64,000 bases of DNA, from positions 4,992-68,991 of the forward strand of contig CAVPCQ010000038.1 of NCBI GenBank assembly GCA_963702425.1, given 5' to 3'. This DNA is from an uncultured Acidobacteriota bacterium (GTDB lineage Bacteria; Acidobacteriota; Polarisedimenticolia; J045). Below are positions 2 to 57,572 of the stretch, one piece after another. Numbering within the stretch: position 1 is the stretch's first letter; each line of letters begins with the position of its first letter. The notes under the pieces are model-generated. The model did not search any database, was not told where the DNA came from, and saw nothing but the letters and a program-made list of their open reading frames with translations. Both the position numbers and the translations under genes were made by a program.

Positions 2-1045
2 GCCCGCCCCGCCGCCACGACCGGCCGCGCCGGCGACTTCTCGACCTCGCCCGACATCTCGCCGGACTTCGGCCGGCGGCTGGCGGTCCAGGCGGCGGAG
101 GTCTGGGAGCGGCTGGGCGGCGGGCCGTGGCAACTGGTCGAGCTGGGACCCGGCCGGGGACTGCTCGCCGGAGACCTGCTCGACGGCCTCGAGCGGCACG
201 CCCCGGCGGCGCGCGCCGCGCTGACGGAGCTGGTGCTGGTCGAGCCCAGCGAGACGCTGCGCGCGGCCCAGTCGGAGCGGCTGCGCGCGGCGCACCCCGG
301 GCTTTCCCTGCGCTGGGCCGCCTCGCCCGCCGAGCTGGCGCCCGGATCGATCACGGGGGTCGTGGTCGGCAACGAGGTCCTGGACGCCCTGCCCACGCAC
401 TGGCTCGCCCGGCGCGAGCACGGGCTGGTCGAGCGCTGCGTCGCGGTCGGCGCGGACGGCGCGCTGGCGCTGGCCGACGGGCCGCTCTCGGACCCCCGGC
501 TGGCCGGGCGCGTGGCGCGCTACGGCCTGCTCGCGCGCGTCGGGGACGACGCCGAGATCTGCCTCGCGCTCGAGGAACTCATCTCCGCGACCGCCCGCGC
601 CCTGGCGCGCGGCGCGGTCCTGTTCATCGACTACGGCCACCCCGCGGCCCGGCTGGCGGACGAGGACCACGCCGACGGCACCCTGCTCGCATACCACGGG
701 CACCAGGTCGTCTTCGATCTGCTCGCCCGCCCCGGTGAGCAGGACATCACCGCCCACGTCAACTGGGACCACTGCGTGGACGCCGCGATCGAGGCCGGGC
801 TGACCCCCTGCGGCCGGACCCGGCAGGAGCGGTTCCTGTTGGCGCTCGGGCTGCTCGAGGACCTCTTGCTCGATCCCGAGCCGGGGGCGATGGCGCCCGC
901 GGAGCAGGCCCGCCGCCTGGCCGCCCGCGCGCTGATCATGCCCGGGCTGGGGGGCGGCACCCGATTCGAGGTCGTCGGCTTCGTCCGGGGGCTTCCGGCC
1001 GACCTGCGCGGCTTCGGCGACCCCTTGGCCGGGATGCCGGTTTAG
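2..1045 (+). CDS. SAM-dependent methyltransferase, MidA/NDUFAF7 (DUF185) family; 5' end cut by the window edge
   Basis: The frame is open from the window edge to TAG 1043-1045. The translation (...GDFSTSPDISPDFGRRLA...WQLVELGPGRGLLAGDLLDGL...IDYGH...) shows the GDF.TSP..S and ELGPG.G signatures of this family. The track ORF 233..1045 is its internal part. Confidence 0.75.
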   Translation, partial: ARPAATTGRAGDFSTSPDISPDFGRRLAVQAAEVWERLGGGPWQLVELGPGRGLLAGDLLDGLERHAPAARAALTELVLVEPSETLRAAQSERLRAAHPGLSLRWAASPAELAPGSITGVVVGNEVLDALPTHWLARREHGLVERCVAVGADGALALADGPLSDPRLAGRVARYGLLARVGDDAEICLALEELISATARALARGAVLFIDYGHPAARLADEDHADGTLLAYHGHQVVFDLLARPGEQDITAHVNWDHCVDAAIEAGLTPCGRTRQERFLLALGLLEDLLLDPEPGAMAPAEQARRLAARALIMPGLGGGTRFEVVGFVRGLPADLRGFGDPLAGMPV

Positions 1046-1106
1046 CGGAAGAATGGCGCTCTTTTGGGCCGACCACGCCCGGCCCTCCGCCCGAGGACTC
1101 CCGACG

Positions 1107-2852
1107 ATGAGCACCGACGCCACGACCGCCTCCCCCGTCCACGGCCTGTTCCTCGGGGAACTCGCCGACGAGCTGGTCTACCCCTACCCGGAGCAGGAGG
1201 CCGACCAGCGCGAGACGACCGACCAGGCGGTCGAGGCCTTCCGCGATTGGGCGCGCGACAACGTCGATGCGCGGGCGATCGACGCCGCCCAGGAGATCCC
1301 CGAGGCGGTGCGCGACGGGATGGCCGAGCTGGGGATCATGGGGATGACGGTCCCCGAGGAGTACGGCGGCTACGGCTTCGGGATGACCGGCTACTGCCGG
1401 ATGGTCGAGGAGCTGACCCGCAACGACGCCTCGCTCTCGGTCTACGTCGGCGCGCACCTGTCGATCGGCGCGCGGCCGATCATCCTCTACGGCTCACCCG
1501 CGCAGCAAGCGAAGATCCTGCCCGGGGTCGCCAGCGGCGAGACGCTCTGCGCTTTCGCGCTGACCGAGCCGGGAGCGGGCTCCGACGCCGGCTCGATGCG
1601 CACGCGCGCGGAGTGGGACGCCGCGAAAGGCGTCTACCGGATCAACGGCAACAAGATCTGGATCACCAACGGCGGCTACGCGAAGCTGTTCACGGTCTTT
1701 GCGCGCGGCTCGGGCGGACCGGCGGGAGAAGGGGAGGGGTTCTCCGCCTTCATGGTGCGGCGCGGCACGCCCGGCTTCACCAACGGCCCGTCGGAGCACA
1801 AGCTCGGGATCCGCGGCACCTCGACCACGGAGCTGGCCTTCGTCGACGTCGAGGTCCCGCCGGAGGATCGCGTCGGACCGTGGGGCGAGGGGTTCAAGAT
1901 CGCGCTCCAGTCGCTCGAGACCGGACGGCTGTCGCTCGGCGCCGGCTGCACCGGCGGGGCCAAGGAGATGGTGCGCCTGGCGGTCGAGCACGCGCGCGAG
2001 CGGCGGCAGTTCCGCCACCCGATCATCGAGTTCGGGATGATCCGCGAGAAGCTGGGCCGGATGGCGGCGTCGGCCTTCGGCGCGGAGTCGGCGGTCTATC
2101 TCGCATCGGGGCTCTACGACGCGAAGCGGGCCGACGTCGGCGTCGAGGCCGGCTACTGCAAGGTGCTGGGCTCCGAGACGCTCTGGCAGGCGGTCAACGA
2201 CACGATCCAGGTCACGGGCGGGATCGGCTACATGACCGAGTACCCCTACGAACGGCACCTGCGCGACAGCCGGATCAACCTGATCTTCGAGGGGACGAAC
2301 GAGATCCTGCGGCTGTCGGCCACGCTGGAAGCGCTCAAGGAGCCGGGCCGCCGCGTGACCGAGGCGATCAAGGCGGAGAAGGCCGAGATCGGCGCGGCGG
2401 GCCTGGTGGCGGCGATGGCGGTCGAGGGGATGCCGTCGGGCCGCACCGCCGGGGGAGCGCGCAGCCTGCGCTGGGTCACGCCCGCGCTCGCGCGCGACGC
2501 CGAGCAGTTCGCCGCGGCGCTGGCGCTGTTCGGCGAGACCGTGCGCGCGACGCTGAGAAAGCACCGCCGCGCGATCCTCGGCGCGCAGTACACGATCCGG
2601 CGGCTCGCCGACGCCGCGATCCAGCTCTACGCGGCGGCGGCGGCCCTCTCCCGCGCCAGCACGCTGGCGCGCGACAAGGGCGAGGACGGCGCGCGGCGCG
2701 AGATCCTGCTCGCCCGACGCTTCGTCGACGAGGCGACCCGCCGCGTGCGCCACGAGCTGGACGTCGTGGACGGCACGCGCGACGCGCTGGACGACGAGAT
2801 CGCGGGGCTGTTGGCGATCGAGGGGCGCTACCCCTCGCCGCTCTTCACCTAG
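1107..2852 (+). CDS. acyl-CoA dehydrogenase, long form with C-terminal extension (VLCAD/ACAD9-like architecture)
   Basis: Track ORF 1053..2852; ATG 1107 (MSTDATT) is the more plausible start. Motifs seen: TEPGAGSDAGS, KIWITNGG, QVTGGIGYM..YPYERHLRDSRINLIFEGTNEI. About 180 aa follow the ACAD core. Confidence 0.85.
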   Translation: MSTDATTASPVHGLFLGELADELVYPYPEQEADQRETTDQAVEAFRDWARDNVDARAIDAAQEIPEAVRDGMAELGIMGMTVPEEYGGYGFGMTGYCRMVEELTRNDASLSVYVGAHLSIGARPIILYGSPAQQAKILPGVASGETLCAFALTEPGAGSDAGSMRTRAEWDAAKGVYRINGNKIWITNGGYAKLFTVFARGSGGPAGEGEGFSAFMVRRGTPGFTNGPSEHKLGIRGTSTTELAFVDVEVPPEDRVGPWGEGFKIALQSLETGRLSLGAGCTGGAKEMVRLAVEHARERRQFRHPIIEFGMIREKLGRMAASAFGAESAVYLASGLYDAKRADVGVEAGYCKVLGSETLWQAVNDTIQVTGGIGYMTEYPYERHLRDSRINLIFEGTNEILRLSATLEALKEPGRRVTEAIKAEKAEIGAAGLVAAMAVEGMPSGRTAGGARSLRWVTPALARDAEQFAAALALFGETVRATLRKHRRAILGAQYTIRRLADAAIQLYAAAAALSRASTLARDKGEDGARREILLARRFVDEATRRVRHELDVVDGTRDALDDEIAGLLAIEGRYPSPLFT

Positions 2853-2860
2853 GAGGCCGG

Positions 2861-3646
2861 ATGGCGCTTCTCGACGGAAAGTACGGGCTGCTCCTCGGGA
2901 TCGCGAACGAGCGCTCCTACGCCTGGCACATCGCGCAGGCGCTCGAGGAAGCCGGCGCGGAGCTGGCGTTCAACGCCCTGCCCGGCGAGAAGAACGAGGC
3001 CCGCACGCGCTTCGCCGTCGACGCGCTGAACATCCCCGACCCCTGGATCCGTCCCTGCGACGTGGCCCGGGACGAAGACATCGACCGGCTCTTCGAGGCC
3101 TACGCAAAGGATTTTCCGCGGCTCGACTTCGTCGTCCACTCGGTCGCCTTCGCCGACCGCGAGTACCTGCAGCCCGGCAAGTTCATCGAGACCCCGCGGG
3201 CCTCGTTCCTGATGGCGCTGGACATCTCGGTCTACTCGCTGATCGCCGTCGCGCGGCGCGCGCGGCCGCTCCTGGCCGCGGCCGGCGGCGGCTCGATCAC
3301 GACGATGAGCCACTACGGCGGCGACAAGGTCTTCCCGGGCTACAACGCGATGGGCGCCTGCAAGGCGGCGCTCGAGGCCAGCGTCCGCTACCTGGCCGAG
3401 GAGCTGGGCGCGGAGAAGATCCGCGTCAACGCGATCTCCGGCGGGGCGTTCAAGACCCTCGCGGCGTCGGGGATCGGCGGGCTCAAGTCGATGCTCGCCG
3501 AGTCCGAGCGCCGTTCCCCGCTGCGGCGCGGTGTCGAGGGGGTCGACGTCGGCGGGACGGCGGTCTACCTGGCCTCGGAGCTCTCCTCCGGAGTCACCGG
3601 CGAGACGATCTTCGTCGACTGCGGGATGAACATCCTCGGCGCCTGA
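2861..3646 (+). CDS. fabI: enoyl-[acyl-carrier-protein] reductase (NADH), FabI type
   Basis: 261 aa, with AGGAGG 5 nt upstream of ATG 2861. Motifs seen: GIANERSYAW, the SDR catalytic Y-x6-K (YNAMGACKAALE), and RVNAISGG..KTLAASGI. It is hidden inside shadow ORF 1064..3646. Confidence 0.85.
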   Translation: MALLDGKYGLLLGIANERSYAWHIAQALEEAGAELAFNALPGEKNEARTRFAVDALNIPDPWIRPCDVARDEDIDRLFEAYAKDFPRLDFVVHSVAFADREYLQPGKFIETPRASFLMALDISVYSLIAVARRARPLLAAAGGGSITTMSHYGGDKVFPGYNAMGACKAALEASVRYLAEELGAEKIRVNAISGGAFKTLAASGIGGLKSMLAESERRSPLRRGVEGVDVGGTAVYLASELSSGVTGETIFVDCGMNILGA

Positions 3647-3677
3647 ACCTCGGGCGCAGTCGGGGGACGGCGGCAGG

Positions 3678-6600
3678 ATGGTCCCGACCCAAGCGGTCCT
3701 GGCGTGGCTCCACCGCACCTTCGCGCTGCGCCGCGGGGAGGGCCGCCGCGCCCTGCTGCTGACCGTCTACCTGGGCGTCGTGATCGCCTCGTACCTGATC
3801 CTGAAAGCGGTTCGCGACGCGCTCTTCATCGCCGCCTTCAGCGCGATGAAGCTGCCCTACGTCATCTTCGGCATCGCGCTCCTGGTGGGCGTGTTCGTCG
3901 ACGTCTACATCAGGATCTCGCGCCGCGTCCCGGCGGCGCGGCTGATCACCTGGACGCTGGCCCTGTTCATCTCGAATCTCCTGGCGTTCTGGGTCCTGGC
4001 GCGGATGGGCTTCACCTGGCTCTTTCCGCTGCTCTATATCTGGGTCGGCTTCTTCGGGGTCGCGGCGCCGGTCCAGGTCTGGACGCTGGCCAACGAGGTC
4101 TTCACGACGCGCGAGGCGAAGCGCGTCTTCGGCATCGTCGGCGGCGGCGGGATCACGGGGGCGATCATCGGCGGCGCGATCGCCAGCGTGCTGGCGATCG
4201 AGATCGGGACCGAGCAGCTGCTGCTGGTGGTCGCGCTGCTGCTGGTGGCCTGCATCGTCCTGGTGCACTGGATCGCGCGCTACCGGTTGCCGGTGCTGCG
4301 CGAGCGGCGGGATGAGGTCCTCCCGTGGAACCTGGCGATCAGCGCGCGGCGGGTGCGGAGTTCCCCGCACCTGCGGGTGCTGGCGGCGCTGGTCTTCGTC
4401 GGCGCGCTGGCCACGACGATCGTCGATTTTCAGTTCAAGGCGGCGGCCGGCGGTGCGGGATTCACCCGCGACGAGCTGACGGCGTTCTTCGCGGCGACCC
4501 TGTCGGCGATGTCGCTGGTCGGCCTCGTCGTCCAGCTCGGGATCGTCCGGCCCGTGCTCCGGTCGCTCGGGTTGGGGGCGGCGATCCTGGTCCTGCCGTT
4601 CTCGCTGCTGCTCGGCGAGTCGACGCTGATCGTGCTGGGCAGCCTGTGGGCCGCGGTCTTCATGAAGGCCAGCGACGGCGCGTTCAAGCACTCGATCGAC
4701 CGCTCGAGCAAGGAGCTGGCCTACCTGCCGGTCCCGGTCGAGATCAAGTTCCAGGTCAAGTCGGCGATCGACATGGTGCTCGATCGGCTGGGGGACGCGA
4801 CGGGCGGCCTGGTCCTGCTCGTGCTCGCGACCTGGCTCGGCTTCTCGATCGTCACGATCGGCTGGGTCAACCTTGCTCTGCTCGGGGCCTGGCTGTTGCT
4901 GGCGCGCCGGCTGCGGCAGTCGTACGTCGACGAGCTGGCGACCTCGATCGGGGCCAAGAGCGCGCGCGCCAGCTACGAGTTGGACGCCTCGCTGATCGAC
5001 GCCGACGCGCGCGCCGGGCTGCGGCGCGCGCTGACCGCCGCCGACCCGCAGACGATCGGGATCGCGCTCGAGCTGGCGTCGCTCTCCCCCGGCAGCGACC
5101 TCGAGCCGGAACTGGCCCAGCTCGCGCAGCACGAGAGCCCGGAGGTCCGCGCGCGCGTGCTGGGTGTGTTCCTCGCACCGGGCGGGTCCGGGCTGCCGCC
5201 CGAGCTGCTCGACCGGCTCGAGGAGGCCGACCACGACCTGCTCGCCAAGGGGCTCGACCTGGTGCTGGCGACGACGCCCGAAGAGCGCCGCGAGCGAGCC
5301 ACGGCGCTGCTCGGCAAGCGTCGGCCCGACACGCAGGGCGTGATGCTGGCGCTGCTGGTGCGGCGGCTCGGCCCCGACTTCGCGCCGGTCGCGGCGCACG
5401 TGCTGGACGGGATGATCGCGGCCGACGCGCCGGCCTCGCTGCGTCGCGCCGCGGCCTCGGCGCTGGGGATGCTCCCCGCCGACTCGGCCCTGGCCGGCAA
5501 GCTCGACGCGCTGCTCGACGACCCCGAAACGGAGGTGCGGGCCCAGGCGGCAGAGAGCGCGGGGCGCCTCGGTCGCAGCGACCTGGTCCCGCGCCTGGTC
5601 GAGCTGCTCGGCTCCCACCGCACGCGACCGCCGGCGCACCGGGCGCTGGTGGCGCTCGGGGGGGAAGCGATCCCGGCTCTCGGGGCAGCCCTCGCCCGGC
5701 AGCGGGGCACCCCCGCTTCGGGCTCGTCGCCGGAGTCGGCGGCCCTGCGGCACGTCCCGGCGGTGCTGCGCGCGATCGGCTCCTCGGGCGCGATCGCGCT
5801 GCTGGTCGACAGCCTCGGCCACCCCGACGAGTTCGTGCGCGAGGCCTCGATCCACGCCGTCGAGCGGTTGCGCGAGCGCGACCCGGAGAACCTGCTGGCG
5901 GGCCCGGAGCTGGTCGATCCCGAGATTGCCGCCGACGGCGAGCGCCACGCCTGGATCCTCGGCCACTACGCGGCAGCCGCGGCCGAGACCGGCCCGGTGG
6001 CCGAGTTCCTCGCCGCGCGGCTGCGCGAGCACCTGGCGCGGGTGCGGCGCCGCGTCCTGTCGCTGCTCCGGATGCGGCTCGGGCCGCGCTCGGCCCAGGC
6101 CGTGGCCCGCGGCCTCGAGTCGGGACGCCCCGACCTGCGCGACAACGCGCTCGAGCTGCTCGACTCGGCCCTGCCGCGCTCGCTGCGCGCCTCGGTCGTG
6201 CCGATGCTGGAGGAGGAGCCGGCGGCGGTGCTCGAGATGCGTGCCGGGGAGCCGATCGGTTACCCTTCCCCGCGCCGCGCGCAGCTGCTGCGCGAGCTGG
6301 CGCTCGGGGCCGACCCGTGGCTCGCGGCCGCGGCGCTGCGGGTGGCCGCGGAGAGCGGGCTGGGCTGGGTCGAGGAGGTCGCGTCGCGCCGCCGCGACCA
6401 CGCGGCCACGGTCCTGGGCGAGGAAGCGCGGCGCGCGATGCGGAGGCGGGGTGGAGCCGAGGGGGAGGGACCGGGCGTGACGATGTCGCTCCTCGATCGC
6501 GCCGTGGCGCTGCGCGCGGTCGACGCCTTCCGCGGCGTCACCACCGATCAGCTCGCGCTGATCGCCGCGATCGCGGCCGAGCAGGTCCTTCCCGAGGGGA

Positions 6601-11702: not shown

Positions 11703-13543
11703 ATGACGGTGCACGACTCGCCAGCCTTCATCCTCGGGATCTCGGCCTTCTACCACGATTCCGCCGCCTGTCTCGTGCAGGATGGCCGGATCGTCGCTGC
11801 GGCCCAGGAAGAACGCTTCACGCGCCGGAAGCACGACGCGGGATTCCCGCGGCACGCGATCGACTACTGCCTGCGCGAGGCGCGCATCGGCCCGGACCGG
11901 CTGACCGCGGTCGCCTTCTACGACAAGCCGTGGATCAAGTTCGAGCGGCTGCTCGAAACCTACCTCGCGTTCGCGCCCGGCCGGTCGTGTCCTCCTTCCT
12001 GAAGAGCATGCCGCTCTGGCTGAAGCAGAAGCTCTGGATCGGCGACCTGATCGCGCGCGAGCTGGGCTACGACGGCGATCTGCTCTTCCCGGAGCACCAC
12101 CAGTCGCACGCCGCGTCCGCCTTCTTCCCGTCTCCCTTCGAGCGAGCCGCGTTCCTGACGATGGACGGGGTGGGGGAGTGGGCCACCGCTTCCTGGGGCG
12201 TCGGGCACGGCAACCGGGTCGAGATCTCGCACGAGCTGCGCTTCCCGCACAGCCTCGGCCTGCTCTACAGCGCCTTCACCTACTACACCGGCTTCAAGGT
12301 CAACTCGGGGGAGTACAAGGTGATGGGGCTAGCGCCCTACGGCGAGCCCCGGTACGCCGGGCTGATCTACGACCACCTCCTCGACCTGCGCGAGGACGGC
12401 TCGTTCCGCCTCAACATGGAGTACTTCAACTACTGCCAGGGCCTGACGATGACCTCGGAGCGGTTCCACCGGCTCTTCGGCGGCCCGCCGCGGGCGGCGG
12501 AGTCCGAGGTCACGCAGCGCGAGATGGACCTCGCCCGCTCGCTGCAGGACGTCACCGAGGAGGTCATGCTGCGGATGGCGCGCCACGTGCGGAAGGCGAC
12601 CGGGGAGCGGAACCTGTGCCTCGCCGGCGGCGTCGCGCTCAACTGCGTCGGGAACGGGAGAATCCTGCGAGAGCGAGTGTTCGACCGGCTGTGGATCCAG
12701 CCCGCCGCCGGTGATGCCGGAGGCGCCCTCGGCGCCGCGCTCTTCGCCTGGCACCAGGTCCGCGGCGAGCCCCGCCGCGCGGACCCGGGTCGCGACAGCC
12801 AGTCGGGCTCGTACCTCGGACCCGCGTTTCCCGGCGATGCGATCCGGCAGTGGCTCGACGGTGCGGGCATTCCGTACCGCACGCACTCCCCGTCCGAGAT
12901 CCCGGGCCTCGCGGCCGAACTGATTGCGCAGGAGAAGGTCGTGGGGTGGTTCTCCGGGCGGATGGAGTTCGGGCCCCGGGCGCTGGGGGCCCGGAGCATC
13001 CTCGGGGACGCCCGCAGCCCGAAGATGCAGTCGGTCCTGAACCTCAAGATCAAGTTCCGGGAGTCGTTCCGCCCCTTCGCGCCATCCTGCCTGGTCGAGG
13101 ACGTGTCGGAGTACTTCGAGCTGGAGGTCGAGTCGCCGTACATGCTCCTCGTCGCGCCGGTCGTCGAGACGCGACGGCTCGCGATGAGCGCGGAGCAGTC
13201 GGCGCTGTTCGGGATCGAGAAGCTCAACGTCCCGCGCAGCGACATCCCCGCGGTGACGCACGTCGACTACTCGGCGCGCGTGCAGACGGTCGACGCCCGC
13301 GATCACGCGCAGTACCACGAGCTGATCCGTGAGTTCAAGCGGCGGACCGGGTACGGGGTCATCATCAACACGTCGTTCAACGTCCGCGGCGAGCCGATCG
13401 TCTGCACGCCGCAGGATGCCTACCTGTGCTTCATGCGGACGCAGATGGACGCGCTGGTGCTGGAGGACTGCGTGCTGCTCAAGGAAGAGCAGCCGCCGCT
13501 GAAGGACGACGTCGACTGGAGATCGCAGTATGGCCTCGACTGA
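11703..13543 (+). pseudogene. carbamoyltransferase (NodU/CmcH family), reading frame interrupted by a -1 shift near 11976-11992
   Basis: The first ~100 aa (frame of 11697..12002) read MTVHDSPAFILGISAFYHDSAACLV...FERLLETYLAFAP. The remaining ~515 aa (frame of 11669..13543) read ..SFLKSMPLWLKQKLW..HHQSHAASAFF..GEYKVMGLAPYG... Together they are the two halves of one enzyme. The first frame hits TGA at 12000. The switch lies in gcgcccggccgg (C/G runs). This may be an assembly indel. Confidence 0.8.
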
Positions 13544-33016: not shown

Positions 33017-33896
33017 GTGCGCCGCATGCTCCAGTTGCTGTCATCAGGGTGCCTCGCCGCACTCGCGGGCGGGTGCGCCGCCGCCGATTCGCCGGCAGCC
33101 GAGGAATGGGCGCGCTGGATGCTGCGCGGGCTGCCCGGGGTCTCGGTCGCGTGCACCCCGAAGCTGGAAAGCGACCCAGCCATGACCGTCCACTGCGTCG
33201 ACCTGGAGATGCCGTGGAACGAGTTTCGGCGGGAGTGGGAGTCCGCCCTCCGGTCGGCCGGCCGGTCGTTTCCCGACACGGGGTGGCTCGATGAGGGGAA
33301 GCTGAAGCGCCGGCGCTACATCGTCTTCGACGTGCCCGTCGACGTTTTTCGAGACTCCGCGGGCTCGGGCCTGGTGATCGCGGTCCCGCGCTTCTTCCTG
33401 GATTGCGACGAGGTGAACTGGGGCGATGTGATCGACCTCGACCAGGACACCTCGGGGGAGATCACGCGCCCGCAGCTCGAGCACCGGGTCGAGGCCGTCT
33501 ACCCGGAACGCGAGCGCCGGGCCAGGCGCCTAGTGTCACGTAACCGAAGTCACGCTAACGCCGGGGCGGTCTGGCAAGCCGATGGCTGCGTTGCTCCTCC
33601 TTGCTGTACGGTTCAGTACAGCGTCGTCGTCGCGCCTTGCCCTCGGCTCACCATCCTCGCCCTGGCATTAACCTGACTTCGGTTACGTGACACTAGGCAG
33701 GGTCTGGATGATGGGACTGATCCGCACGGATGGGCACGTCGCGCCGCTCTGCATCAAGTCGTCGGAGGGCGCCACGCCCGCGATGAACTCCGCCGCGCTG
33801 CGCGCGCTCGCGCAGTGGCGCTACGCGCCGGCGCTGCGGGACGGCCAGCCGATCGCGGTGCGATTCGTGGTGGCCATCAGTTTCTCCGTCCGCTAG
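33017..33896 (+). pseudogene. lipoprotein with TonB C-terminal domain, split by a MITE insertion
   Basis: GTG 33017 (GGAG upstream); lipobox LLSSGC / ALAGGC. The upstream part ends ...EITRPQLEHRVEAVYPERERRARR, then reads into the MITE and stops at 33676. Track ORF 33687..33896 (..GRVWMMGLIRTDGHVAPLCIKSSEG..AALRALAQWRYAPALRDGQPIAVRFVVAISF) is the rest of a TonB_C fold. Removing 163 bp rejoins the two frames. Confidence 0.8.
33530..33696. mobile_element. MITE copy 1 (159-bp core flanked by CTAG on both sides)
   Basis: Perfect 23-nt terminal inverted repeats: CTAG-TGTCACGTAACCGAAGTCA ... TGACTTCGGTTACGTGACA-CTAG. There is a central hairpin, GCTGTACggttcaGTACAGC. The element is too short to encode a transposase. 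A second copy at 55685-55851 differs at two positions (33553 and 33555, C vs T). Confidence 0.85.
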
Positions 33897-49918: not shown

Positions 49919-50065
49919 CGGGCTCCGGCTCGACTGGGAAGTGTAGGGGACGGCTTCGAGCCGGCTCGCAGCGCGGGAGCTCGTCCGAACGGTGAGTCTA
50001 GGCCTTCGCCAGGGATGCGGCGAGCTTGCCCCGGGTGACGGTTGCCTGTACTTCCTGCATCACGA

Positions 50066-52814
50066 ATGACGCAGCGCGCGTTATCTGTAGCCCTTACCGG
50101 TTTGTTCCTGTTCGCGGGACTCCGCGGAGGGACGGCGTGTGCCGCTGTCCGAGCGTCCGGGCCCTCGGGGGCTCCGGCAGCCGGGCCCTCGGCGGCGGAG
50201 GAATCGGTCCGGGCCTGCGCGCGGCTCGAAGGGCTGATCACTCCGGCGACCGCGGCCGGGCGCCTCGCGGCGGTGCCGGCTGCCGAGCGCCGGGCGCGGC
50301 TGATCGCGGTCCTCTCCGCCGACGCAGTCGCGCACGCGGCGCGGGCCACCGCGCAGTTGCGCGCCGCCGGCGGGCGCGACGTCCGGCTGCTCTGGGGCGC
50401 CGGCGTGATCTGCGCGAGCGCGCCGCGCGCCGTGTGGGACGAGGTCTCCCGGCTGGACGAGGTGGCCGCCGTCTTCGACGACCCGCCCCGGGACGAAGCC
50501 GAACTGCTCGACTTCCCGCCTGGCCCGAACGAGGCCGTCCCGCCCGAGGCGCCGCTCGTCGCGCTGCGCGTCCCCGAGGCCTGGCAGCGCGGCTACACCG
50601 GGAGCGGGACGGTCGTCGCGCTGATGGACACCGGCGTCGACCGGACCCACCCCGACCTGGTCGGGCAGATCTGGGTCAACGCCGGCGAGGTCGCCGGCAA
50701 CGGCCTCGACGACGACGGCAACGGCTACGTCGACGATGTGAACGGCTACGACTTCGCCGACCGCGATCCCGACCCGTCCGACTCCGCCGGCCACGGCACG
50801 AACGCCGCCGGCCTGATCGTCGGCAACGGGAGCGCCGGCAAGCAGACCGGCGCCGCACCGGGTGCGAAGCTGATGGTGCTGCGCCGCGGCACGACGCAGG
50901 CGACGCTGTGGGAGGCGAGCCAGTACGCGATCGAGAACGGCGCCCACGTCCTGTCGCAGTCGGTGTCGTGGAAGTGGTCGTTCCTGCCGCGGCCCGACTA
51001 CTCCGCCTGGCGGCGCCAGGCCGAGACGGAGCTGGTAGCGGGCCTGGTGCACGTCAACAGCTCGGGCAACACGGGCGAGCAGCTCGGGACGGAGCCGATC
51101 CCCTACAACGTCGCTGCGCCGGCCAACTGTCCGCCCCCCTGGCTGGGTCCCGAGCAGACGCTCGTCGGTGGAGTGTCGTCCGTGCTGGGGATCGGCAACG
51201 TCGACGCGCGCACGCACGCGATCGTGCCGTCGAGCCCCTACGGTCCCGCGGAGTGGACCGACATCGTGGCCCGGCGCGACGCGACCTACCCCTGGCCGAT
51301 GCCGCCCGCGCACCAGGACTACCCGGCGTGGAGCGGCGCGATCGGTCTGCTGAAGCCCGACTTCGTCGCCCCCGGCGACAACTCGACCAGCACCGCGATG
51401 GGCGGCGGCTACGCGACCTTCGGGGGGACCTCGGCCGCGACGCCGCGCGTCGCCGGGATCCTGGCGCTGCTGCGCGAGGCGGTGCCGCGCGCCACGCCGG
51501 CCGAGCTGGCGCGCGCGCTCTTCACGAGCGCGGCGGACCTCGGTCCTGCCGGCCGCGACGCGCGCTACGGCGCCGGGATGCCGCAGGCCGACGCCGCGAT
51601 CGACGCCGCCGGGCCGCCGCTGTTCGTCGCAGCGGTGACGGTGCACGACGACGGCGCGCCGCGCGGCGACGGCGACGGCGGCGGGGACGCGGGGGAGATC
51701 GTGCGGCTCAACGTGACCGTCGAGAACGCGTCGGCCGGCGCGCTCGCCGGGATCGACCTCGTGCTGCGCGGCGGGACCGACGCGCTCGTGCGCGACGGCT
51801 ACGCGCGGCTGGCCTCGCTCGCCGCGCAGGCGACGGCGGTCGTCGACTTCACCGTGGAGTTCCCGGCGGGGAGCTGCGCGCGCGTTGCGGAGCTGGCGCT
51901 CGAGCTGCGGGAAGGGGGCCGCGCGCGGGTCGAGCCGCTGTTCGTGACGGTCGGGACCGAGACGCGGCAGGCGCTCTTCGCCGACGACGCCGAGCAGGAT
52001 CGCGGCTGGAGCGTTTCCGGCGGCGCGACCTCGGGGCAGTGGGTGCGGCAGGCGCCGGTCGGGACGACGAAGAGCGGCGCGCCGATGAACCCCGCCGCCG
52101 ATGCCAGCCCCGCTCCCGGCACGCTGGCCTGGGTCACCGGCAACGGCCCGACGGCGCCCGACGCCGCCGACGTCGACGGTGGCGCGACGACGCTGACCGC
52201 GCCACCCCGCGACGGCCGCGACTTCGCGCGCGTCGAGCTGCGCTACGCGCGGTGGTTCGCCTCGAACGACGCGGCGAGCGAGGACCGGCTGCTGGTCGAG
52301 GCGACCGGCGACGGGACGGCGTGGCGCGCGATCGAGGAGATCACCGCGCCCGCGGCGGCCTGGCGCGCACGCAGCATCGTGCTGTCCGACCTGCTGGCGC
52401 CCGGCGCGCGCACCGCGCTGCGCGTGACGGTCGAGGACGCGGGGGCGGACGACACGGTCGAAGGCGGGCTCGACGAGGTCCTGCTCGAGGGGATCGCGAT
52501 CGCCTGCACGGAGTTCGTGCCGCCGGTCGGGCCGACGCCGGACGAGGTCGGTGCGACGCTGCGCCTCGCGCCCGCGGCGGGCGGGCATCTGCTGCTGACG
52601 TGGGACCCGCCGTCGGCGACGGGGGGCGTCGATCCGCCGCGCGGGTATCGCGTGCGGCGGTCGGCCGTGGCGAGCGGCGGGTTCGCGGAGATCGGGCGGC
52701 CGCTGGCGGCGCGGTTCACGGAGGTCGACGGGGTGGCGGGGCGGCGGGCTGGTCGGGGGGCTCGTGCCGGGGTCGGCGGCGTTCTACCTGGTGGAGTCGG
52801 TGCGGTCGCGCTGA
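50066..52814 (+). pseudogene. secreted S8 subtilisin-family peptidase with long C-terminal region and terminal FN3-like module; +1 frame disruption within 52716-52757
   Basis: ATG 50066 with a signal peptide. Catalytic triad contexts: VALMDTGVD (Asp), SAGHGTNAAG (His), FGGTSAATPRVAG (Ser). The track frame (to 52966) degenerates after ..ARFTEVDG. The third frame reads ..GGLVPGSAAFYLVESVRSR* with TGA at 52812-52814. This is the same kind of ending as the M14 protein (..SSFYLVAAKN..). The shift lies in G-runs, including G6 at 52755-52760. Confidence 0.75.
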
Positions 52815-53012
52815 ATCGGTCGGCCCGAGAGTCTCTAACGCGGCAACTGCAATCGGTAACGACTCGCCTTCAGCCCGCCGCTGCGGGACCGGCGACGCTG
52901 GACCGCAAGCCCTCGCCAGGCCGCCGGGAATGGTCGTACTCTTGCGGTGTATCCCTCCCAAGATGACGTCCCCGGCGCAACGGAACACCGAGCCGCCGGT
53001 CGGGGGTGAAGC

Positions 53013-55688
53013 GTGGAGTCGAGCCGGCCATCTGCGATCGGCCTGAGCGTCGTCGTCGCCGTGCTGCTCACGACGGCCCCCGGCGTGCGCGGCGCGCGCG
53101 AGTTGACGCTCGACGAACGGGTCGATGCCCGGTGGGCGATCGAACAGGTCTTCTGGAACCACCGCATCTGGCCGGCGGAGAATCCCGGACCGAAGCCCTC
53201 CCTCGAGCAGGTTGTTTCCAGGCTCGCGCTCCGAGCGCGGGTGGAGCGCGAGCTCGAAGCCTTCGCCGCCGCCGAACGGTCGATCGGCCGCGCGATCACG
53301 GCCGACGAACTCCAAGACGAGGTCGCGCGCATGACCCGCGACAGCCGGGATCCGGAGATGCTGCGCGAGCTCTTCCGCGCCCTGAATGACGACCCCGAGC
53401 TGATCGCGGAGTGCCTGGCGCGCCCGCTCGTCGCGGATCGGCTGCGGCAAGGCGCGGCCCCCGCCGGATCGAAACTCCTGCCGCCGCTGGAGACGAAGCG
53501 GCGCCCGTGGTCGTTCTGCGACTACGACACCTGGCGCCAGATGACACCGTCCCCGCTCGCGCCGCGCAGTCACCACAGTGCGGTTTGGACCGGGAGCGAG
53601 ATGATCGTCTGGGGCGGTGCAGAGCCCGGGGCCACGCAGACGGGGGCGATCTACACCCCCGCGATGGGTTACTGGTTCTTCACGTCGATCACTCGCTTTA
53701 CGCCCGAGCCGCGCCTCGAGCACACCGCGGTCTGGACCGGGAGGGAGATGATCGTCTGGGGCGGCCGCGACCCCGCGATGGGCGAGGGCCAGTGGCTCCA
53801 GACCGGCGGCCGGTTCGATCCCGCCACCGGTGCGTGGACTCCGGTCTCCGTCCCGGCCGAAGCGCCTTCGGCACGCGCGCGCCACACCGCCGTCTGGACG
53901 GGGAGCGAGATGGTGATCTGGGGCGGCGAGGACCGAGCGGGCTCGCTCGACAGCGGCGGCCGCTACGACCCGGCGACGGAGCGCTGGCGCGGGGTGGGGC
54001 AGGCCGGATCGTTCATGCCCGGGCCGCGCAGCGGACACACGGCGACCTGGACCGGGGGCGAGCTGCTCATTTGGGGCGGCGAGTACAAGGACGCGTCCGG
54101 CGGCCGTCGCGCCCTGGGAGACGGCGCACGCTGGTCAGCGCTCGCGGACGCCTGGACTCCCGTCACGGCGGCCGGCGCGCCGAGTCCCAGGCGCGGACAC
54201 ACCGCGATCTGGACCGGAAGCGAGTTGATCGTCTGGGGCGGCCTCGATGATTCTGGAAACCCACCGACCGACGCGGGTGCGCGCTACGACCCGGCCACCG
54301 ACGGCTGGCGCGCCGTCAGCGCCGTCGACGCGCCATCCACCCGGGAGCTCCACAGCGCCGTGTGGACGGACCAGGAGATGGTCGTCTGGGGTGGCCTCGA
54401 TACGACCGGAGCGCCGCCGCTCGACGGCGGGGGCCGTTACGACCCGAAGAACGACCGCTGGGGCGCAACCACGGCGGATCGTGCGCCGGGCGGCCGGGCG
54501 CATCACACGGTCGTGTGGAACATCGGGGAGATGATCGTCTGGGGCGGGAGCGGGGGCGTCGCAGGCAGTCTGCTGGGCGATGGCGGCCGATACTGCGCGC
54601 AATGCCCGTACTGGTTCCCGGATGCCGACGGCGACGGGTTCGGTCTCTACGGAACCGGCGTGATCGCGTGCGAGCAGCCGGCTGCATATGTGGACAACTT
54701 CGACGACTGTGACGATACCGACGCGAGCATTCACCCGGGTGCAGAAGAGACCTGCAACCTGAAGGACGACAACTGCAGGGAGGGCGCGGACGAGGGCGTC
54801 ATGACACGGTTCTACCGGGACCGGGACGGCGACGGGTTCGGGCGAGCGGATGACGGCTGGTCCGCCTGCACCGCTCCCGAAGGCTACGTCGCGGACGCGA
54901 CCGACTGCGACGACTCGCGCGCGGCCGTCCATCCCGGAGCCGAGGAGCGGTTCCTGCTGGACAACTGCGATGACGGTCTCGACAACGACTGCGACGGCCT
55001 GTCCGACGACAGGGAGCCGGACTGCGCCAGCAGCATCACCAAGCCGGACTTCCCGTGGGCGCCGCCGCTGATCTACGCCGGACGTCCCGCCGAGCTGCGC
55101 ACCGGCGGTGCGCGATGCGATCTTGGCGATCCGGTCGAGTACCAGTTCCGATGGGGAGACGGCGCACTCTCCGAGTGGACCACCACCGGCCGAGCGAGCC
55201 ACACCTGGGTGGAGCCAGGCGAGTACGCCGTGCCGGCCCGGGCACGCTGCGGCGGTCACCCGGAGATCCTGTCGCCTTGGTCGACACCCGTCAGGATCCG
55301 CGTCAGCGCGCAACCCACGAGCGGGCCCGATCTCGTCGCCAGCCCGCGTTCCGTTCGGCAGGACTGCAAGCGGCGGAGCGGGGTCGAGGTCTGTACGCTC
55401 AAGGCCCGGATCGCGGTGCGCAACACCGGCGATGATCCCACTTGGTCGAGCCGGCTCGATTGGCTCGTCTCAGATGCGTTGGTCTGGGAGGAAGGCGACA
55501 AGCCCCTCTCCTCGGTCTTCGTGCCGGAGCTGAGGCCAGGCCGGACAAAGACCGTCAAGATCCTGTACACAATCCCCGGCGGGACGAGCGGGCGCGGAAA
55601 GTACCTCCTGGGACGATTGGACCCGGCCAACCGCATCCGGGAGCGGGACGAGCTGAACAACGACTTCGCGGTCGCGATTGGGCCCTAG
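53013..55688 (+). CDS. secreted Kelch-repeat protein with Cys-rich putative metal-binding repeats and PKD/CARDB-like C-terminal domains
   Basis: 891 aa from GTG 53013 with a signal peptide. At least seven repeats of H(T/S)AVWTG.E(M/L)(I/V)(V/I)WGG are present. Two to three D.DGDG(F)G.......C....(Y)V....DCDD.....HPGAEE motifs follow, then beta-sandwich domains. The stop TAG 55686-55688 lies in the MITE-flanking CTAG. Confidence 0.75.
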   Translation: MESSRPSAIGLSVVVAVLLTTAPGVRGARELTLDERVDARWAIEQVFWNHRIWPAENPGPKPSLEQVVSRLALRARVERELEAFAAAERSIGRAITADELQDEVARMTRDSRDPEMLRELFRALNDDPELIAECLARPLVADRLRQGAAPAGSKLLPPLETKRRPWSFCDYDTWRQMTPSPLAPRSHHSAVWTGSEMIVWGGAEPGATQTGAIYTPAMGYWFFTSITRFTPEPRLEHTAVWTGREMIVWGGRDPAMGEGQWLQTGGRFDPATGAWTPVSVPAEAPSARARHTAVWTGSEMVIWGGEDRAGSLDSGGRYDPATERWRGVGQAGSFMPGPRSGHTATWTGGELLIWGGEYKDASGGRRALGDGARWSALADAWTPVTAAGAPSPRRGHTAIWTGSELIVWGGLDDSGNPPTDAGARYDPATDGWRAVSAVDAPSTRELHSAVWTDQEMVVWGGLDTTGAPPLDGGGRYDPKNDRWGATTADRAPGGRAHHTVVWNIGEMIVWGGSGGVAGSLLGDGGRYCAQCPYWFPDADGDGFGLYGTGVIACEQPAAYVDNFDDCDDTDASIHPGAEETCNLKDDNCREGADEGVMTRFYRDRDGDGFGRADDGWSACTAPEGYVADATDCDDSRAAVHPGAEERFLLDNCDDGLDNDCDGLSDDREPDCASSITKPDFPWAPPLIYAGRPAELRTGGARCDLGDPVEYQFRWGDGALSEWTTTGRASHTWVEPGEYAVPARARCGGHPEILSPWSTPVRIRVSAQPTSGPDLVASPRSVRQDCKRRSGVEVCTLKARIAVRNTGDDPTWSSRLDWLVSDALVWEEGDKPLSSVFVPELRPGRTKTVKILYTIPGGTSGRGKYLLGRLDPANRIRERDELNNDFAVAIGP

Positions 55689-55847
55689 TGTCACGTAACC
55701 GAAGTCATGTTAACGCCGGGGCGGTCTGGCAAGCCGATGGCTGCGTTGCTCCTCCTTGCTGTACGGTTCAGTACAGCGTCGTCGTCGCGCCTTGCCCTCG
55801 GCTCACCATCCTCGCCCTGGCATTAACCTGACTTCGGTTACGTGACA

Positions 55848-55851
<4 letters not shown>
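55685..55851. mobile_element. MITE copy 2 (same orientation as copy 1)
   Basis: It is identical to 33530-33696 except at 55708 and 55710 (T instead of C). It is flanked by CTAG at 55685-55688 and 55848-55851, which hold the stop codons of the two convergent neighbouring genes. Confidence 0.85.

Positions 55852-57572
<1,721 letters not shown>

Follow-up and report, generated by a model that had tools for sequence, protein, structure and literature searches.

An IS630-family miniature element very probably inserted into the CTAG that carried the stop codons of two convergent genes in an uncultured acidobacterium

In a 64-kb stretch of DNA from an uncultured Acidobacteriota bacterium (the whole stretch is called the window below) a Kelch-repeat gene and a permease gene run towards each other, and a short palindromic element separates their stop codons. 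How could such an element settle between two genes and leave both proteins intact? The locus as a whole is, with high probability, best explained by the insertion of a miniature inverted-repeat transposable element (MITE) of the IS630 family into a CTAG that served as stop for both genes, with both stops regenerated. Direct reading of the sequence located CTAG at 55685-55688 and again at 55848-55851 with 159 bp between them, and the stretch 55685-55851 is built as CTAG, TGTCACGTAACCGAAGTCA ... TGACTTCGGTTACGTGACA, CTAG. The terminal 19 nt of the 159-bp element were perfect reverse complements of each other (19/19), and the arms, with the CTAGs counted in, were 39 nt long and 92% complementary. 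The element lies within the size range of MITEs (about 50-500 bp) and contains no transposase gene. The 19-mer TGTCACGTAACCGAAGTCA was found four times in the window, compared to 0.01 matches expected by chance, and the four matches defined two elements, 33534-33692 and 55689-55847. The two copies differed at 2/167 nt.

The open reading frame (ORF) to the left, 53013-55688 on the forward strand, ends with the codons GGG CCC TAG, the TAG being at 55686-55688. A CARDB match in the encoded Kelch protein extended to residue 886 of 891 and the C-terminus is therefore taken to be intact and native. The ORF to the right, 55848-57572 on the reverse strand, matched AA_permease_2 (E=1.6e-52); its TAG stop is complementary to 55848-55850. 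The original prediction, made from the letters alone, had placed one TAG inside each of the two CTAGs, and this is where both were read. It had further proposed that removal of the insertion would leave a single palindromic CTAG with both stops, and had set as a check that the two genes would abut at such a site in a relative lacking the element.

Exactly this arrangement was present in a related genome. The closest homologue of the Kelch protein in the protein collection, P0121 (88% identity over the full length), is encoded on contig JALOKY010000137.1 (L003) of the Acidobacteria metagenome-assembled genome (MAG) GCA_025456285.1. On L003 the Kelch gene occupies 464-3136 on the forward strand and the permease gene 3133-4734 on the reverse strand with an overlap of 4 bp, and the junction GATCGGGCCCTAGCGATGCGAGGCGATCC contains one CTAG and no element, as the collapsed state had been drawn. 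In blastn L003 1-3136 aligned to window 52541-55688 with 90.2% identity and L003 3133-4734 to window 55848-57449 with 90.5% identity. The two L003 blocks overlapped solely in the CTAG 3133-3136, and 163 bp of the window were absent from L003. Two collinear blocks with this overlap are the classical mark of an insertion that duplicated its target, 163 bp in total. The overlap of the collapsed genes had been given as 2 bp, which holds for the stop codons, sharing TA, and is refined to 4 bp for the coding sequences including their stops. Both proteins end at matching residue positions in the two genomes: the Kelch protein with AVAIGP in the window and AVTIGP on L003, the permease with GRLASTC and GRIASHR, respectively. 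The positions of the protein ends were thus unchanged, in agreement with the proposal that the target duplication regenerated a stop for each gene.

Further copies and a possible parent were found by an exact 19-mer scan of one genome per species, together with a metagenome scan. Genuine further MITE copies were found in one genome only of the one-genome-per-species scan, the Acidobacteriota MAG MFD02979.bin.1.81, which has two full copies (L005 4461-4619 and L007 6228-6386) and a remnant of 31 bp (L008 2774-2804). All copies, the two in the window and the two plus remnant in this MAG, had different flanks. Identity among the MITE copies was 97.6-98.8%, whether compared inside the window or with those of MFD02979.bin.1.81; for host DNA it was 90-93% between genomes. 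The L005 and L007 copies reached this identity with the window copies though the DNA shared by the two genomes was only about 92-93% identical. The high identity across genomes suggests recent activity of the MITE or of a related insertion sequence (IS), or transfer between related Acidobacteriota. In the L008 remnant (2770-2808 with its CTAGs) an AACC microhomology marks the point where the right repeat has become fused to the initial 12 nt of the left one, and the product forms a perfect 12-bp stem with a 7-nt loop.

The metagenome contig L009 contained a complete ORF of 351 aa and, after it, TTAACATGACTTCGGTTACGTGACA, with 25/25 positions shared with the MITE end. The encoded protein scored 227 bits on NF033545, the NCBIfam equivalog for IS630 family transposases (cut-off 100), and contained the Pfam domains HTH_32 and DDE_3. 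Close relatives of this transposase (94% and 82% identity) were found in complete IS of 1,132 bp, L014 599-1730 and L015 317-1448, with inverted repeats related to those of the MITE and CTAG on both sides. The window element is thus identified, from these shared ends, as a MITE derived from an IS of the IS630 family (Tc1/mariner superfamily). Single matches to the exact repeat on L004, L006 and L010-L013, low-GC or unrelated contigs, resembled the element over about 19-25 nt only and were put down to chance or to unrelated sequence. On two of these, metagenome contigs of 46-49% GC (L012 440-466 and L013 1145-1169), the 19-nt end lies one base from CTAG (GCTAGC-TGTCACG...) and TTGCCATGGCAAC-type repeats are present; these ends may be a distant IS630-like end or chance.

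CTAG was found on 14/14 flanks of seven complete insertions, namely the two in the window, L005, L007, the L008 remnant, L014 and L015. According to Tenzen & Ohtsubo 1991, as cited in PMC6811581 and PMC2170065, IS630 inserts at the TA of 5'-CTAG-3' and duplicates the TA, and members of the IS630 family move by cut-and-paste into TA (PMC2170065). Because the element belongs to this family, the duplication was most probably the TA within the CTAG target rather than 4 bp. We propose the following course of events. A 159-bp, fully palindromic and non-autonomous derivative of an IS630-family element would have been mobilised in trans by a cognate transposase. It would have integrated into the TA of the CTAG that formed the 4-bp tail-to-tail overlap of the Kelch/MopE and permease genes, and that provided a TAG stop to each of the two strands, the second one appearing as CTA. 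The target would then have been duplicated by staggered cleavage followed by repair, and the terminal G...C of the element would have completed CTAG at each junction, so that each gene would retain its own stop and an unchanged protein, with a spacer of 159 bp between the stops. The features of the locus are collected in Table 1.

Table 1. Coordinates of the insertion, its sister copy and the two convergent genes in the window.
Feature	Position	Strand	Remarks
Left CTAG target copy	55685..55688	.	contains Kelch-gene TAG 55686-55688; single CTAG at empty site L003 3133-3136
MITE body, 159 bp, IS630-family derived	55689..55847	.	55688-55848 under TA-duplication convention; full-length hairpin
Left terminal inverted repeat TGTCACGTAACCGAAGTCA	55689..55707	+	plus next 6 nt = 25/25 nt with right end of L009 IS630-family IS
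Right terminal inverted repeat	55829..55847	-	exact reverse complement of left repeat
Right CTAG target copy	55848..55851	.	contains permease stop (complement of 55848-55850)
Sister MITE copy incl. both CTAG flanks	33530..33696	.	2 nt different; in-frame CTA-G of TonB_C lipoprotein gene
Kelch beta-propeller / MopE / PKD / CARDB secreted-type protein gene, 891 aa	53013..55688	+	domain matches; ortholog P0121 (L003) with 88% identity; identical to database protein P0375
APC-family amino-acid/polyamine permease gene, 574 aa	55848..57572	-	AA_permease_2 match; identical to database protein P0372

Several observations weigh against the proposed insertion history. A tblastn search with an IS630 transposase query found no transposase homologue in the 64-kb window, and an active partner in the source genome is therefore putative. 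The IS end on L009 is flanked by CTGG and not by CTAG. At every junction the TA lies inside CTAG and the end bases G...C of the element complete the motif, so that duplications of 2 bp and of 4 bp look alike in the sequence; either length gives an identical empty site and identical regeneration of both stops. Finally, L003 is the only direct empty site for the Kelch-permease pair; L001, L002 and L016 differ in the gene content of the junction. In a rival history the element would be ancestral at the site and would have been excised precisely in the L003 lineage, the CTAG of L003 being a restored one. A single CTAG could in principle be regained by recombination between the two CTAG/TA copies, and IS630/Tc1 elements are cut-and-paste movers (PMC2170065). 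Cut-and-paste excision, however, usually leaves footprints and none was present in L003; in MFD02979, too, the permease end carries a double-stop CTAG that is unoccupied. Had the element been present before the split, a divergence similar to that of its flanks, about 90% identical to L003, would be expected, whereas MITE copies are 98-99% identical, including across species. We regard a precise loss in L003 as scarcely credible. Since identity between MITE copies exceeds that of host DNA, the insertion is much younger than the split of the lineages, a recent event that followed the split from the L003 lineage.

The family assignment has a competitor in an IS5-type MITE with a true 4-bp CTAG duplication like that of MITEPsy1. 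CTAG at both junctions would fit such an origin, and IS5-related MITEs duplicating CTAG or YTAA exist (PMC3189936), but over its terminal 25 nt the element equals the end of an IS, and the transposase of that IS exceeds the cut-off of the IS630 equivalog by a wide margin. No IS5-type partner was found; the ends match an IS630-family IS instead. An IS5 origin is consequently judged very unlikely. The element ends in TGT, and an IS481-type duplication of 6 bp (NCTAGN) was considered as well; it was rejected as the bases beyond CTAG differ, CCTAGT on one side and ACTAGC on the other. A different kind of explanation concerns function rather than origin, namely that the element was co-opted as a bidirectional terminator, or as a hairpin that stabilises or processes the 3' ends of the RNA, and is kept by selection. 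As RNA 55685-55851 folds on either strand into one continuous hairpin of 167 nt (-106.1 and -112.6 kcal/mol; z = -14 and -15), and as DNA the same stretch gave -56 kcal/mol; both stop codons sit at the base of the stem. Such a strong single hairpin in either transcript, placed between genes that ancestrally had no spacer, could serve this purpose, and in Neisseria RNase III acts on the hairpins of Correia MITEs (PMC2229807). A hairpin is, on the other hand, simply how a palindromic MITE looks, and apart from it nothing supports the terminator suggested in the original prediction. No U tract follows it on either strand, as an intrinsic terminator would have, and no terminator-pattern match and no promoter-pattern match were detected at the element; Rfam gave no match at E<=1 within 55500-56050. 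The surrounding 20 kb contained one canonical U-tract terminator compared to 3.9 expected by chance. Canonical terminators being this scarce, the missing terminator at the element says little, and other 3'-end signals may be used in this genome. The position is not specific for such a function, as other copies lie inside a gene or upstream of genes, and the family is low in copy number. Selection for a terminator or processing role is therefore considered unlikely, and an effect of the element on 3'-end processing or stability is conceivable. The insertion of an IS630-family MITE into a double-stop CTAG is retained as the explanation of the locus.

The sister copy in the window had a different outcome. 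Copy 1 (33530-33696; context 33026-33896) occupies an in-frame CTA-G of a lipoprotein-like gene. Deletion of the 163 bp of copy 1 restored an ORF of 235 aa that ends at the CTAG 33893-33896, and the C-terminal TonB_C domain of this restored ORF (PF03544, E=1.1e-13, residues 157-233) spans the insertion point. As an insertion of 163 bp shifts the frame, copy 1 most likely inactivated the TonB_C gene. The original prediction had taken the insertion at 55685 to illustrate how CTAG-targeting elements can survive in a genome with hardly any spacer DNA. As a general claim, that CTAG targeting makes insertions harmless, this is true in part: it holds for the Kelch and permease proteins, whose end positions are unchanged, but not for copy 1, which interrupts a gene. 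For the insertion at 55685 we infer that it was most likely near-neutral.

Why did the element land on stop codons at all? The window contains 12 CTAGs, whereas base composition would predict 162 and a Markov estimate 70; for GATC the count is 672. With the two duplications removed, ten CTAG sites remain that existed before the insertions. A stop codon is present at five of the ten (at 2849, 18254, 33893 and 41201, and as the double stop at 55685), three lie in divergent intergenic regions (23306, 32972 and 49998), and the remaining two, 12329 and 33530, are leucine codons with CTA-G in frame. In 21.7 kb of L016, a contig of MFD02979.bin.1.81, CTAG occurs only twice, once as a double stop. The insertions on L007, L014 and L015 are also on a CTAG that provides a gene with its stop codon, and those on L005 and L008 lie in 5' intergenic DNA. 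Because the element is CTAG-specific and CTAG is almost absent from coding sequence, landing on stop codons is expected; it would largely be a statistical consequence of the scarcity of CTAG in a genome of 72% GC. About ten targets were on offer in the window, among them the double stop at 55685, and convergent overlaps of 4 bp on CTAG, CTAA, TTAG or TTAA are known to be common (PMC2174442). Among the 31 genes provisionally called in the window, 12 are terminated by TAG.

The 3' end of the permease gene was also variable among relatives. L016 is collinear with the window over about 18 kb at 92-93% identity. It lacks window 52806-55865 (3.06 kb), which takes in the Kelch/MopE gene and the MITE together with the final 15 nt of the permease gene, the L016 counterpart being 11708-11733. 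On L016 one double-stop CTAG (11728-11731) serves both the permease gene and a Peptidase_S8 gene. On L001 the permease (94% aa identity) ends with TGA, followed by a spacer of 32 bp and an unrelated neighbour of 181 aa, and on L002 the permease gene (84% aa identity) overlaps a Peptidase_S8-type gene by 25 bp and the Kelch gene is not present. Having different stops and neighbours, L001 and L002 were unusable as comparators for the empty site. These differences are explained by the different gene content of the junction and do not reflect a failed reconstruction. The permease tail reads RVARAERS/G/D before the stop in most relatives and R[LI]AS[TH][CR] in the window and L003. By these comparisons the Kelch-permease double stop is a derived arrangement common to the window and L003, and the permease 3' end has undergone several remodellings and would be a rearrangement hotspot.

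A broader interpretation can be offered as a tentative one, which we hold to be possible though rather doubtful. In high-GC genomes such as this one CTAG would be purged from coding sequence and persist mostly in the form of C+TAG stops. CTAG-specific IS630-family elements would then be funnelled systematically to gene ends, 4-bp convergent double stops included, and as their TA/CTAG duplication restores the stops, the gene ends would act as a built-in safe harbour. The permease 3' junction, with four configurations among genomes 84-94% identical in the permease, could be a rearrangement hotspot promoted by repeated transposon traffic at its CTAG. No inverted-repeat remnant tying the rearrangements at the permease junction to a transposon was found. 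The Kelch gene was also considered as the cargo of a MITE-bounded composite transposon, and this was rejected as no inverted-repeat remnant, with up to three mismatches, was present at its left boundary.

Next to the Kelch gene, the S8-type peptidase gene (main frame 50039-52966) has a 3' end, about 52742-52966, that is out of frame compared to the orthologs on L016 and L003. These orthologs end with FYLVE[PS]VR.. and a stop at the position of window 52812-52814. The disagreement in frame results from a length difference of 2 nt near 52745, to be read as a true frameshift or else as an indel that assembly introduced in a G/C run.

The locus thus offers a clean natural example, with occupied and empty sites, of a transposon that splits a convergent gene pair with zero spacer and changes neither protein. 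It also presents an apparently undescribed IS630-type MITE and its putative parent IS in uncultured Acidobacteriota, and a small quantitative illustration of how extreme CTAG avoidance confines such elements to few sites, half of them stop codons. Copy 1 splits the TonB_C gene and so qualifies any general claim of harmlessness. Otherwise known IS630 biology is confirmed as ordinary transposon behaviour, with no new mechanism.

Among known systems, IS630 of Shigella sonnei (IS630/Tc1/mariner) resembles the autonomous relatives described here, which have an NF033545 transposase, a length of about 1.13 kb, a single ORF and short inverted repeats. As for the window element, CTAG is the preferred target, and in IS630 the TA is duplicated according to the work cited above; unlike IS630, the window element is 159 bp long without a transposase, and its host is an uncultured high-GC Acidobacteriota. 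The RUP elements of Streptococcus pneumoniae, mobilised by IS630-Spn1, are likewise non-autonomous elements of roughly 100-160 bp that have inverted repeats in common with an IS630-family IS; RUP inserts at TA (PMC2229807). They are present in about 100 copies and use a plain TA target, whereas the window family has few copies, two in 64 kb and two plus a remnant in the whole related MAG, and is strictly flanked by CTAG. The Correia or NEMIS elements of Neisseria are also palindromic MITEs with long hairpins; they duplicate TA and are co-transcribed with their neighbours (PMC2229807). Correia elements differ in having IHF sites, promoters and demonstrated RNase III processing. MITEPsy1 of Pseudomonas syringae likewise has CTAG (or YTAA) at both junctions (PMC3189936), but its parent family is IS5 (ISPsy2) and its inverted repeats are unrelated. 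Compared to convergent genes with 4-bp tail-to-tail overlaps, the empty state, seen on L003 and with another partner gene on L016, is the standard CTAG double stop (PMC2174442); in the window this double stop would have been split by a transposon with both stops regenerated.

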